DNA of 21,812 nt from a virus, in UHGV virus genome UHGV-1651579; one strand, given 5' to 3'. This document shows positions 13,115 to 16,136 of this stretch, piece by piece. The position numbers and the translations under genes were made by a program. The notes under the pieces were generated by a model, which had not been told where the DNA came from, did not search any database, and was given only the letters and a program-made list of their open reading frames with translations. Position 1 is the first letter of the stretch, and each line of letters starts with the position of its first letter.

Positions 13115-14074
13115 ATGTTTGGTAATCTTTTCAAAACGGAAGAAACTAAGGCCCGGGAGGGCTTGGAGTCTCATTATCAGAAAGTCATGAGCTTCGTTGC
13201 TGAAAATGATCTACATGAAGCATGGGAAAAAACACGCAATATCATTTTTCGAAATATGGAAGTTAGAAGCTACATCACGCAAAACGGCGCGTTCGATCGT
13301 AACGATTTTTACTATAAGTCAGCCAAAGAGAAGCTTATTCAAAGCGCCTTCACTTCATACCTACTCATAAAAGTTTTACCTCAGTTCTATGAAATGCATC
13401 TCACCACTTTGAAAAGAAAAGAAAAAACACTCACAACACAGGATGAATACGGGGTCTGGAACTTTGACAAGTGGTTTGATGAAGTAGACTACTTTTATGA
13501 CAAGGTAGTAAAAGAGAAAGTTTACGATTGGATCGAAGAGAACACAGGCCGGCTCAACAACCTTTGGTTGGCAGAGTCGGAGGACAAGAATGCCTGGGGG
13601 CGGCCAGTTTACTTTAAATTCCAGTTGCCTGAACAATTTGATCGCTGCGCAATAAATCACATTATGACGGTGGTAGACAATACACCAGAACCTGAATTAC
13701 CTGAGTACACTTCGCTACTGACCGGGCACGAATATGAGCATTTTGTCGCTGGGGAGTTTATGAAGTATGGATCCGACACCCAAGTAACTAAGGGCAGCGG
13801 CGATCACGGTCTGGATATCCTTGTAACCTATAGAGAAGTTCGAATGGCTGTTCAGTGCAAACACTACCAGTCTAAAGTAGGCAACAAAGCTATTCAGGAA
13901 GCATTTTCCGCGAAACAGTTCTACGATTGCTCCCTCGCAATAGTAGTCAGCAACAGCGAGTTTACCCCTCACGCCAGACAAGCAGCCAAAAAACTGGACG
14001 TTTATCTGTATCACCATGAAGATATACACTTAATAATAGACGCCATTAATAATTGGCTGGATGCGCCGGAGTGA
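13115..14074 (+). CDS. two-domain protein: unknown N-terminal domain (about residues 1-195) + C-terminal Mrr-type PD-(D/E)xK restriction-endonuclease domain (319 aa)
   Basis: C-terminal block GHEYEHFVAGEF...KGSGDHGLDIL...AVQCKHY...IVVSNSEFTPHA matches Mrr catalytic-domain pattern (GxGDxGxD and VQCK); plus strand and AT-rich, unlike neighbours. Confidence 0.7.
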   Translation: MFGNLFKTEETKAREGLESHYQKVMSFVAENDLHEAWEKTRNIIFRNMEVRSYITQNGAFDRNDFYYKSAKEKLIQSAFTSYLLIKVLPQFYEMHLTTLKRKEKTLTTQDEYGVWNFDKWFDEVDYFYDKVVKEKVYDWIEENTGRLNNLWLAESEDKNAWGRPVYFKFQLPEQFDRCAINHIMTVVDNTPEPELPEYTSLLTGHEYEHFVAGEFMKYGSDTQVTKGSGDHGLDILVTYREVRMAVQCKHYQSKVGNKAIQEAFSAKQFYDCSLAIVVSNSEFTPHARQAAKKLDVYLYHHEDIHLIIDAINNWLDAPE

Positions 14075-14109
14075 AGATTGAGGGGCTAATGCCCCCCCCT
14101 ATTCGTCGG

Positions 14110-14298
14110 TTAAAAGAACCCGAGGATGCCGCCCACTGGAACAATGAAAACTCCCACGACACGCGCAAGTGTCACTCCGGCATGAGACTGGAGATCGCCA
14201 TCGTTCACAAGTTTCACCAGATTCATGATCCAGCCGTTAAACAAAAAAACGGTAAAGCCAACAATCATCAAGGTGAATTTCTGGAAGTTCCATTTCAT
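14110..14298 (-). CDS. small hydrophobic membrane protein (62 aa)
   Basis: ATG overlaps stop of upstream ORF by ATGA; strongly hydrophobic. Confidence 0.4.
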   Translation of the reverse strand: MKWNFQKFTLMIVGFTVFLFNGWIMNLVKLVNDGDLQSHAGVTLARVVGVFIVPVGGILGFF

Positions 14299-14552
14299 AC
14301 AATAGCCTCAGTCACTGTAGAAGGAAGATCCGGAGTCGCAGGTCGAGCTGGAATCGTGTCCATCAGCATCCCATCCAGAGAGACAGGAGGTCGTTCGGGC
14401 AGGGGTGTCATCTGCAAGGCTGTGGTGGCAGTGGAAGTAGTTGTGCCCGGCATCAAAAGGCTCTGACCGGCTGGTACGGTAACCGCTGCCAGAGTTGCCA
14501 AAATCACTCCGTAGGCCATTGACTTCAGTCGATTTCGTTGAAAATTTTCCAT
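14295..14552 (-). CDS. Pro/Thr-rich protein with signal-peptide-like N-terminus (about 85 aa)
   Basis: MENFQRNRLKSMAYGVILATLAAVTVPAG then Pro/Thr-rich; start uncertain (track start 14591); overlaps other-frame ORF 14308-14808. Confidence 0.35.
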   Translation of the reverse strand: MENFQRNRLKSMAYGVILATLAAVTVPAGQSLLMPGTTTSTATTALQMTPLPERPPVSLDGMLMDTIPARPATPDLPSTVTEAIV

Positions 14553-14808
14553 GAGAACTGTTCTTGTGTGTCCGGGTTTCACGCAACACACGAGAAGCGA
14601 CGCTATTACGCACCTTCTCCATGCCTACTGTCGTGCCCTGATTAGCTATGGCGGTAGCTTGCACATTAATGCGCTTCTCCAGTTCAAACACTCGTTCTTC
14701 CAGTTCCGTAAGGCGTGCGGAAACACGACCACTAAACAGCTCGGTCAGCACCAGGCGAATTGAACGGGGACGTTTATTGAAAGAAGTGAAAGACGTTTGA
14801 CGGGCCAT
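14308..14808 (-). CDS. ORF with protein-like coiled-coil N-terminus (about 85 aa) then low-complexity tail; possible frameshifted gene
   Basis: ATG 14808; N-terminal LTELEERVFELEKRINVQ looks genuine, remainder is Ser/Gly/Asp-rich and overlaps CDS 14295-14552 in another frame. Confidence 0.3.
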   Translation of the reverse strand: MARQTSFTSFNKRPRSIRLVLTELFSGRVSARLTELEERVFELEKRINVQATAIANQGTTVGMEKVRNSVASRVLRETRTHKNSSHGKFSTKSTEVNGLRSDFGNSGSGYRTSRSEPFDAGHNYFHCHHSLADDTPARTTSCLSGWDADGHDSSSTCDSGSSFYSD

Positions 14809-14837
14809 GTGGATTCCATTCAGTGTCAGAAAGAGTT

Positions 14838-14865
14838 GCGGCTGGCCAAGCCAGCCGCCTTTTGG
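14838..14865. terminator. GC-rich hairpin GCGGCTGG-ccaag-CCAGCCGC with T-tracts on both sides
   Basis: 8-bp stem; on plus strand followed by CTTTTGG; sits between P2 box 14942-14955 and ATG 14808. Confidence 0.4.
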
Positions 14866-14941
14866 CGTTCCATCCTGGAACCGTACCTAACCGGTACTTC
14901 GTCATCCTGACGATTTATAAGATACCTGATTTATTATAGTA

Positions 14942-14955
14942 GGTAAATACTTACT
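14942..14955 (-). promoter_or_regulatory. P2 box copy 3 (GGTAAATACTTACT)
   Basis: overlaps stop codon of RNase HI gene; TATAAT-like hexamer immediately downstream on minus strand. Confidence 0.5.
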
Positions 14956-15559
14956 TATACTTTTGTGACAAAAACCCAATGTCATGCTTGTGAGGCATAT
15001 CAGCTGCGGAATAGGCGGCGATCTTCGCCAGACGGTCACACATTTCGTTCTCGCGATGACCTGCATGGCCTTTAACCCACTTCCAGCGGACATTATGACG
15101 ACTGGCGGCCACGTCGAGACGTTTCCAGAGATCCACGTTTTTGACTGGCTTCTTCTCAGACGTGATCCATCCGTTACGCTTCCAGCCTTTCATCCAGAGC
15201 GTCATGCCGTTTTTAAGATACTGGCTGTCGGAATGCAGGATCACGTTGCAGGGGTACTTCAGACGCTCCAGCGCAATCAGGGCGCCCATCATCTCCATCC
15301 GATTGTTGGTCGTGCTGTGGAAGCCCTCAGAAAGCTCGCGCTCTTCGCCTCGATACTGGAGAACGATACCGTAACCGCCCGGCCCGCCCGGATTTTTGAG
15401 GCAGGAGCCATCACTGAATACTTTTACGGTTTTGAGCTGGGGATTGAACTCGACTACGGGTGTGTTGAAATTGGTACAGGAATGCTGGTGGGTTTGGCAT
15501 CTGGCTTTAGACTTCGTGCGGCAGCCAGTGCGTTGCCGGACTGGGTTCTTGGTCGTCAT
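14951..15559 (-). CDS. rnhA: RNase HI with about 45-aa basic Cys/His-containing N-terminal extension (202 aa)
   Basis: body aligns with E. coli RnhA ([43 protein letters not shown]); all four catalytic acidic residues present; ATG 15559 with GGAG 5 nt upstream. Confidence 0.85.
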
Positions 15560-15626: not shown

Positions 15627-16136
15627 AATATTAAAAATTTTTTAGAAAAGAAAAATTACTTCCCAGAACAGGTTTTAATAAAACCTGAACTGAACGAACG
15701 AAGTGAGTGAAGTTCACCTCGAACGAAGTGAGAGGTTGTCTTTTCAAGTAATACTCTCCCAGTGAGGTGAGTACAAAATTTCCTCACCAACCTGGTCGTT
15801 TCATAACCTGAAAAGTTATGACCTAAGTCTACTGCCAGCTTAGGCTTGGGAAGTTATGGATGACAGCACCCCAGAACCGAGATCTTCCCACACTTTATGA
15901 AGGGGAGTACTGGATTCAACCTCTCGAAACACTCCAGACTCGACAATCATAAAGTGACCCTTCTCTCTGCCCACTTTGGTTCCCCCTTCCCCAACCCCTA
16001 AACGGTGCCGGTTCTACGCTGGTAGTGAGCTTTTTTAAACCTGACGCCAGTGACGCTATCCCCCACCCATCAGGTCGAGCTGCCGAAAGTATCCGGAAGC
16101 GGATAGATTGTATCACTGGTTAGTGGCGTTTTGAAT

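Follow-up and report, generated by a model that had tools for sequence, protein, structure and literature searches.

How are the genes arranged at positions 14,110-14,941 of the virus genome UHGV-1651579, and what is the function of the RNA that precedes them? In the stretch of 21,812 nucleotides (nt) that was analysed, here called the window, this region carries on its minus strand two open reading frames (ORFs) that overlap extensively in different frames, a short hydrophobic ORF behind them, and a strong hairpin in front of them. The initial annotation, which was made from the window alone, offered two possibilities: either a frameshift has split one gene, or a short N-terminal gene is followed by two coupled genes. 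Comparison with homologous loci led us to a different view. We consider it likely that the locus is a small accessory operon, situated between rnhA and a variable cargo site, which consists of a dual-coding gene pair (ORF1 and ORF2), a coupled third gene (ORF3) and a structured leader RNA. Positions 13900-15200 match non-mobilisable plasmids from Escherichia coli, Klebsiella, Enterobacter, Salmonella and Citrobacter, and Salmonella phage SSU5 at ~90% identity, and on the strength of these matches the window is assigned to an SSU5/pHCM2-like phage-plasmid.

The three ORFs of the initial annotation are all present and are encoded, like rnhA, on the minus strand. ORF1 (14808-14308, 166 aa) corresponds to SSU5_091 and belongs to phrog_10411. 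It is overlapped by ORF2 (85 aa), which is in the +1 frame relative to ORF1, starts with the ATG at 14552 and has its stop codon at 14297-14295. The overlap has a length of 245 nt (14308-14552) and comprises ORF1 codons 86-166 and ORF2 codons 1-81. ORF3 (14298-14110, 62 aa) corresponds to SSU5_092 and phrog_6006. The three genes meet in a triple junction (14295-14312), where the ORF1 stop codon TGA (14310-14308) falls within the Shine-Dalgarno (SD) sequence of ORF3 (TGAGG), while the ORF2 stop codon TGA (14297-14295) overlaps the ORF3 start codon ATG (14298-14296) to form ATGA. The coupling of the gene at 14552 to the hydrophobic 62-aa protein through this ATGA, as had been proposed, is corroborated by the fact that every lineage having ORF3 shows an ATGA or a GTGA junction.

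For the comparison we used 18 annotated homologous loci (67-99% DNA identity), 73 loci from IMG/VR and several others (loci are designated L001 and so on, protein variants P0011 and so on). ORF1 was located by script in 87 of these, and 12 lineage representatives were defined, which include the separately checked loci L078, L093 and L177. In 85 of the 87 loci, and in all 12 diverged lineages, neither frame is interrupted, down to ~67% DNA identity, and indels within the overlap are always multiples of three. A homologue comparison, which had been suggested initially as a check, has thus shown that the two-frame layout is kept, and since it recurs in ~90 loci across 12 lineages it is not due to a sequencing frameshift.

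That the second frame is coding is indicated by several signatures. Upstream of the ORF2 ATG, pairwise differences are distributed over the three ORF1 codon positions as 0.30/0.20/0.44, which is a normal coding signature. Inside the overlap the values are 0.31/0.25/0.21, and ORF1 positions 1/2/3 are here ORF2 positions 3/1/2, so that the signature changes over at the ORF2 ATG. The ratio of nonsynonymous to synonymous rates (dN/dS, or ω) for ORF2 codons 2-35 is 0.29 (confidence interval, CI, 0.19-0.45; 10 lineage representatives). The ATG itself is conserved, with a shared start M-[ED]-[NQK]-[FY]-Q, and in nine of 11 lineages AAGGA, GGAG or AGGAGG is found 8-9 nt before it. Finally, ORF2 is retained where ORF3 has been lost (L009 group, L177) or truncated (L007 group). 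From the switch in signature, the low ω, the conserved start codon and SD sequence, and the retention in the absence of ORF3 we conclude that ORF2 is a genuine protein-coding gene; the initial annotation had judged it plausible.

PHROGs has a separate family for each of the two frames, ORF2 matching phrog_15659 at E 9e-14. Some gene-calling pipelines give ORF2 (83-93 aa) instead of ORF1, but the two are never called together. ORF2 occurs in none of the 17 annotated gene tables from GenBank, RefSeq and PLSDB that were examined, which contain only ORF1 of the pair; a conserved gene under selection is missing from these tables because gene callers allow one frame only. Of all peptides encoded in the region, the first 35 residues of ORF2 show the best conservation. 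The protein starts with the positively charged MENFQRNRLK (R6, R8, K10), has one hydrophobic segment at residues 12-29, and continues with a Pro/Thr-rich linker and a conserved LDGM..D.IP motif; its sequence includes the peptide PVSLDGMLMDTIPAR. Residues 12-29 are predicted to be a signal peptide or a signal anchor. A signal-peptidase site between VPA and GQ is plausible for the window protein and is not conserved in all lineages. Homology searches with ORF2 and ORF3 returned SSU5-like elements only.

The intergenic leader region, located between rnhA and ORF1, is conserved better than the genes. A "P2 box" had been noted initially at 14942-14955, and it covers the invariant TTTACC of a promoter-like pair (14919-14947, minus strand), TTTACC (14947-14942) and TATCTT (14924-14919) with a 17-nt spacer. 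Both hexamers are invariant in 19 aligned loci, while L177 has TTTACG. As the pair scores only 8/12 to the consensus, it was missed by a promoter scan. If it acts as a promoter, the transcript would start at ~14912, at the first base of the leader and of its helix P1. The leader is an RNA of 87 nt (14825-14911, minus strand) with four helices in the RNAalifold consensus: helix P1 (14911-14902 pairs with 14834-14825), hairpin B (14897-14883), hairpin C (14881-14867, with the loop AGGAU) and hairpin D (14858-14838), which has a 9-bp G+C-rich stem preceded by an A-tract and followed by a T-rich tail. The hairpin that had been described initially as a possible attenuator or terminator is hairpin D. 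It is real and shows compensatory changes, but it is just one of the four helices and its U-tract is poor for a terminator.

A total of 27 leader variants were aligned by a covariance model, since a MAFFT alignment of 23 leaders had mis-registered hairpin D. In this alignment 98.7% of the cells are paired, compared to 35-48% for slid controls. Double-sided changes affect eight pairs (5/6 in hairpin B, 3/9 in hairpin D), and there are 38 compensatory cells versus 11.8 in shuffled alignments, with none of 500 shuffles reaching 38. The G-U pairs of the leader fit the gene-sense strand only. P1 and hairpin C are invariant in sequence and hence show no covariation. The sole changes in P1 are from G-C to G-U and, in L177, from a U·U mismatch to U-A, so that P1 stays paired; the P1 helix is plausible, and a local hairpin, A, is a competing alternative. 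Rfam gave no match when positions 13900-15300 were scanned with cmscan at E<=1 or the whole window at the gathering score; the leader has no tRNA-like call, and there is no second copy of it in the window. Judged by its covariation, the leader is a new RNA motif, one without an Rfam family. The initial impression of a regulatory-looking structure is borne out; covariation establishes the structure, while we infer the role.

It may be asked if the leader regulates ORF1-ORF3 at all. It could represent the terminator region of rnhA, or an independent small RNA (sRNA) that ends at hairpin D and acts elsewhere. Hairpin D was scored terminator-like, and the superior conservation of the leader over the genes is also consistent with such a view, as is a single recombinant. 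This recombinant was found in a pattern scan of IMG/VR for leaders outside SSU5-like contigs, which otherwise gave chance matches. In L104 (IMGVR_UViG_2869154154_000004), positions 674-791 contain the promoter box and a leader copy in which the loop of hairpin C is ACUGAU and lacks GGA; after P1, this leader continues into unrelated sequence and ORF1 is missing, so that recombination can move the leader as a module of its own. However, a plain terminator needs neither three further conserved helices nor an invariant promoter-like box upstream. In addition, the U residues do not form a continuous tract: in the tail AACUCUUUCU, no run of at least three U adjoins the stem (L093 has a better U-tract, CUUUUUC). 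The invariant 3′ strand of P1 lies beyond hairpin D, so that the conserved element outlasts the end of the supposed sRNA, and the spacing between the leader and the SD sequence of ORF1 is fixed. We regard a function away from ORF1-ORF3 as unlikely, although it has to be taken seriously.

If the leader does regulate the downstream genes, a GGA-binding protein is one candidate for the regulator. CAGGAUG is found twice, at 14909-14903 and 14877-14871, in the loops of hairpins A and C, and a further GGA (14817-14815) is part of the SD region of ORF1. The leader thus has the arrangement of CsrA-type leaders, with at least two GGA sites that occupy a hairpin loop and the SD sequence, and almost all lineages keep these sites; elsewhere in the window, CAGGATG shows no enrichment. 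The CsrA consensus obtained by SELEX is RUACARGGAUGU, with the GGA in hairpin loops (PMC2896534), and the loops (C)A(R)GGAUG match its 3′ two-thirds. A plasmid precedent exists in the leader of the ColE7 lysis protein gene cel, which is repressed by CsrA via GGA sites (PMC2896534); there, too, GGA occurs in hairpin loops and at the SD sequence, upstream of a small plasmid-borne gene for a membrane protein. Unlike in CsrA leaders, the first GGA can be buried in P1, hairpin C of L104 has no GGA, and the four-helix architecture is atypical of known CsrA targets. Binding of CsrA is a candidate interaction and should be taken as a lead. With respect to expression, RNA sequencing data for Cyrano show that ORF1, ORF3, TciA and TciB (CYRAN_83-86) are at background after overnight growth in lysogeny broth (LB), and at 1 h in fresh medium their levels have gone up jointly, with little change in rnhA (PMC9928086, S1 Table).

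ORF1 has a basic N-terminus, a long helix and a tail rich in Ser, Asp, His and Cys, which includes the peptide SGWDADGHDSSSTCDSGSSF and ends with C.SGWD..G.D.S.S.C.SGS..(CC)D. In an AlphaFold2 model, residues 17-80 form one helix, with a predicted local distance difference test score (pLDDT) of up to ~90, while the pLDDT is below 50 for residues 81-146 and 155-166. This agrees well with the initial description of a protein-like N-terminus followed by a low-complexity tail. There is no transmembrane (TM) segment in ORF1, the maximum 15-residue hydropathy being 0.91 with no sequence window at 1.6. The N-terminal part has a dN/dS of 0.32. An exhaustive HMMER search of 1.84 billion representatives with an ORF1 profile retrieved 18 proteins, all from the same family, and no ancestral arrangement in which ORF1 and ORF2 do not overlap was found by homology searches.

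In one of the two initial alternatives, ORF1 would be a short N-terminal gene. When the ORF2 protein is fixed and synonymous codons are resampled, the ORF1 frame is free of stop codons in 5-14% of the trials per lineage. In ORF2, third codon positions are most often T (34-42%), yet at the sites where it would create a stop codon in ORF1 it occurs in 0/80 cases (pooled, 5-10 sites per lineage) versus 37% elsewhere, while A, C and G all occur at these sites. For the measurement of amino-acid constraint, it had to be considered that OLGenie-style dN/dS gave 0.65, and hence spurious "selection", for a phantom frame. Therefore, phantom frames over real genes were used as calibration and were combined with the tests for stop avoidance and synonymous rates. 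In the last segment of the overlap, the ω of ORF1 is 0.43, while that of phantom -1 frames over real genes is 1.2-2.0. The ORF2-synonymous and ORF1-synonymous rates in the last ~25 overlap codons are 0.33 and 0.40, respectively; with a dS of 1.16 in the N-terminal part of ORF1 and of 1.75 in ORF3, ORF2-synonymous changes are 3-5 times below the flanking level. The segment that is constrained in both frames (14313-14384) encodes SGWD...CCD in ORF1 and LDGM..D.IP in ORF2. Of the ORF1 motif C.SGW[DN]..G.D.S.S.C…D, the part SGW[DN]..G.D.S.S.C does not vary, even in the most divergent member (P0042/L177), and the terminal CCD varies (YSD, LSD, CSD, SCD).

Constraint is thus distributed unevenly along the overlap. 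The N-terminal membrane segment of ORF2 dictates the first ~100 nt, the linker in the middle is relaxed in both frames, and the last ~25 codons are constrained in both, so that two constrained segments separated by a relaxed one result in a mosaic. Of the two properties expected for overlapping genes, open frames and purifying selection on each, both are clear for ORF2. ORF1 shows stop avoidance over the whole overlap, and amino-acid constraint in the last ~25 codons only. The absence of any in-frame stop codon, together with the constrained C-terminal motif, does not fit a short N-terminal gene. We interpret the overlap as a mosaic dual-coding region, which is neither a split gene nor a short N-terminal gene followed by two coupled genes.

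It has been considered that only ORF2 and ORF3 matter and that the ORF1 tail is a by-product without function, its frame being kept open for coupling to ORF3 or against Rho polarity. Such a tail could well be disordered, as predicted, could match the phantom baseline as ORF1 does in the first half of the overlap, could end within the SD sequence of ORF3 and with a variable terminal tripeptide, and could tolerate fusions and truncations, which are described below. But in the L009 and L177 lineages, where coupling is impossible for lack of ORF3, ORF1 still extends to the same end point, and a by-product would not be expected to have a C-terminal ω below the baseline, slowed ORF2-synonymous sites and an invariant motif. 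We therefore rate this explanation as rather unlikely. Two differences of the window from its closest relative L001 (99% identical) look functional. One is the replacement of CCD by YSD at the end of ORF1 (14311-14316), where both nucleotide changes fall in one ORF2 codon and convert Ala to Thr. The other affects the SD sequence of ORF2 (14561-14565), which is AAGAA in the window and AAGGA in L001.

ORF3 is predicted to be a hairpin of two TM segments with the conserved motif GDL...AGMTLARVVGIF..P.GS.LGFF. Its dN/dS is 0.21, and 0.11 for the C-terminal half. Three lineages (L009, L007 and L177) and the locus L024 have lost the gene or carry it truncated. In L012, L013 and L017 (Klebsiella plasmids and phage pJN2-26) it is intact, often with a GTG start, and has not been annotated; the pJN2-26 record has instead a probably spurious 46-aa coding sequence that lies antisense over the leader. 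Scans of ORF1, ORF2 and ORF3 against Pfam, NCBIfam and PADLOC gave nothing significant, and PHROGs gave families of unknown function only.

The idea that a small membrane toxin is encoded here has its sole support in hydrophobicity; there is no match in Pfam, NCBIfam, PADLOC or Rfam, and four lineages can dispense with ORF3. A more specific version is a type I toxin module like hok/mok/sok, in which ORF2 or ORF3 would be the toxin, ORF1 a leader ORF, and an antisense RNA would block translation. Both systems are plasmid-borne, with an upstream frame that overlaps a membrane-protein gene out of frame, as mok overlaps hok, and with coupled translation downstream. The small size and hydrophobicity of the products, the near silence in lysogens and a CTTTTG that follows hairpin D on the plus strand would also fit. 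Against this, there is no homology (no Hok/Gef match in Pfam or Rfam), no antisense RNA gene could be detected and a scan of the antisense strand found no promoter-like site, and the ribosome-binding sites (RBSs) are not sequestered. The products are larger, ORF1 has a conserved helical protein part of 85 residues and is more than a leader, and it is ORF3 that is often lost while the rest is kept. Such a module is improbable.

We also considered a single gene across the two frames, either as an ancestral gene split by a sequencing error or mutation, or as a fusion of the ORF1 N-terminus with ORF2 that is produced by programmed +1 frameshifting. Fusion proteins of this kind exist naturally in four backgrounds (P0011, P0019, P0039, P0044), and the window has an A4T4 run at the start of ORF2. 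Two fusions could be traced to DNA: L032, with the P0011 allele, has lost 1 nt and L089 has gained 2 nt, and as the backgrounds are otherwise 98-99% identical the fusions are derived and not ancestral. Truncations into the third frame occur as well (P0043, P0045, P0048), as random indels would produce. With the two-frame state in all 12 lineages and an SD sequence and ATG belonging to ORF2, both frames are ancestral, and a single gene is very improbable. Programmed frameshifting was rejected: there is no conserved slippery site, since the A4T4 run is absent in L006, L009, L012, L047 and L093, with relatives reading GAT CAA TTT, AAT TAT or AAC TTT at this position. Fusion alleles are found at L097-L100 (e.g. 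CP101235.1), L032 and L094-L096 and circulate in plasmids of E. coli and Klebsiella; P0019 is present on 8 contigs. Such alleles amount to naturally occurring knock-outs that affect the tail of ORF1 and the C-terminus of ORF2.

The view implied by RefSeq, that ORF1 is the only gene and ORF2 an accidental open frame resulting from ORF1 composition, is hardly tenable and already contradicted: every annotated record examined gives ORF1 only, and with the ORF1 tail protein fixed 15-74% of resamplings leave the +1 frame open by chance, but the ORF1 third position is the least variable one in the overlap, which is the pattern of ORF2, and chance accounts neither for the low ω and well-conserved N-terminal peptide of ORF2 nor for its invariant ATG, SD sequence and ATGA junction.

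Overlapping genes of a similar layout are known from the Rz/Rz1 spanins of phage lambda, and SSU5 itself has spanins of overlapped architecture. In both cases, the second gene is in the +1 frame on the same strand of a phage genome, the first product has a long helix, and the second is short, Pro-rich and has an N-terminal export signal. However, an i-spanin has an N-terminal TM segment, which ORF1 lacks. An o-spanin is a lipoprotein with a lipobox Cys; among the ORF2 proteins of the 12 lineage representatives, none has a lipobox and 10 are free of Cys, the exceptions being L012 and L177. The locus is found in the replication/accessory region, with rnhA, Dam, TerB and Ant as neighbours, and not in the lysis cassette; the spanins of SSU5 are encoded ~51 kb away (28,585-29,000) and have no sequence similarity. 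Spanin identity was thus rejected on the grounds of ORF1 topology, the missing lipobox and the location.

The immI operon of P1 consists of c4 RNA, icd and ant, and also has a structured RNA before small coupled ORFs. P1 is likewise a phage-plasmid, its promoter-proximal RNA is cloverleaf-like, and in SSU5 and the Salmonella lineages an antirepressor gene (Ant/Rha) follows ORF3. Unlike in immI, there is no match to C4 in Rfam, inspection by eye found no c4-type complementarity between a loop and an RBS, and most lineages continue with TerB/TciA or other cargo and not with ant. The overprinted genes of phiX174 (E within D, K across A/C) also yield two proteins out of frame from one stretch, with the overprinted parts being disordered or membrane-active and with constraint that is strong in one frame and weak in the other. 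In contrast to phiX174, there is no obvious size pressure on a genome of ~100 kb, and both partners are orphans. Our literature search found no paper describing the overlap or the leader.

Returning to the accessory operon, we propose that its expression may proceed as follows. A conserved σ70-like promoter would start the transcript, the first 87 nt of which would fold into the four-helix leader. Ribosomes would start at the ORF1 ATG (14808) and, independently, at the internal SD sequence and ATG (14552) of ORF2, so that ~245 nt are read in two frames. The stop codons of the two frames lie no more than 13 nt from the ORF3 ATG, and with one of them in the SD sequence of ORF3 and the other on its ATG, either frame could feed ORF3 by termination-reinitiation, as the geometry suggests. 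ORF1 would be soluble and consist of a long helix and an acidic, disordered Ser/Cys tail, ORF2 a Pro/Thr-rich periplasmic protein that is either membrane-anchored with its N-terminus inside or secreted, and ORF3 a two-TM hairpin. The cell envelope is the probable target of the module, which would be kept nearly silent in lysogens; we state this with low certainty. The leader probably gates translation or read-through. This could occur by a GGA-recognising protein such as CsrA, which would bind the two invariant CAGGAUG loops and the GGA of the ORF1 SD sequence, or by partial termination at hairpin D. A more far-reaching version would be that the leader is a new class of riboregulator of phage-plasmids, which senses a CsrA-type host protein or switches between closed P1 and open hairpin A, and that the dual-coding stretch is a translational device in which ribosome traffic on ORF1 and independent initiation at ORF2 jointly set the amount of ORF3. 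An envelope-acting module could in this way be tied to host physiology during the decision between plasmid and phage. This version is speculative and we think it doubtful.

Several observations weigh against the accessory operon as we have drawn it. In the leader, no covariation backs the pairing of P1 and the U-tract after hairpin D is poor, and RBS accessibility is the same as in shuffled sequence. ORF1 has no amino-acid constraint of its own in the first part of the overlap, where its ω is 1.66, and in the last segment the CI of its ω (0.16-1.04) just touches 1. The slow synonymous sites in this segment could partly result from RNA-level signals for the initiation of ORF3. In the window, the SD sequence of ORF2 is weakened by the G to A change, which also converts D to N in ORF1, and the terminal CC of ORF1 has been replaced by YS. 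Finally, alleles that destroy the tail are widespread: the index of the collection places P0011 in 132 blocks, a complete plasmid carries it, and the wide circulation of frameshifted alleles implies that the ORF1 tail is not essential for plasmid survival.

In the local gene order, rnhA (15559-14951, minus strand) comes first, upstream of the leader. It is an intact ORF of 202 aa in the window, while in L001 (pYLPI6a; 3571-4250) it is annotated as a frameshifted pseudogene. A 44-aa ORF in the gap upstream of rnhA, CYRAN_81 of Cyrano, is expressed in lysogens ~12-fold above the prophage background, with normalised counts of 117 versus ~8 for its neighbours (PMC9928086, S1 Table), and could be a moron or a non-coding RNA; its counterpart in the window, placed by position only, is at ~15840-15974 on the minus strand. 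On the other side, a gene for an Mrr-like restriction endonuclease (13115-14074, plus strand, 319 aa) is convergent to ORF3 and matches the PADLOC model of the ZorD Mrr-like nuclease domain at E 1.5e-15. At this position, relatives have Ant/Rha, TerB/TciA-DUF3927 or other genes, which suggests a variable site immediately behind ORF3, a hotspot for cargo or defence genes. The gap that separates the ORF3 stop (14110) from the convergent stop of the endonuclease gene (14074) contains, at 14082-14099, a run of eight G (G8) and a hairpin of the sequence GGGGC-ATTA-GCCCC. This hairpin could be a bidirectional terminator, but was not flagged by a terminator scan.

SSU5/pHCM2-like phage-plasmids are common in clinical Enterobacteriaceae. 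The locus is matched by 681 plasmids from PLSDB (310 from Klebsiella, 195 from Escherichia, 83 from Enterobacter and 49 from Salmonella) and in 109 of 5,426 complete E. coli genomes. With 245 nt, the overlap of ORF1 and ORF2 is a well-supported long dual-coding region in a large phage genome, outside of the lysis cassette, which is a rare kind, and its mosaic pattern of constraint could serve studies on the evolution of overlapping genes.

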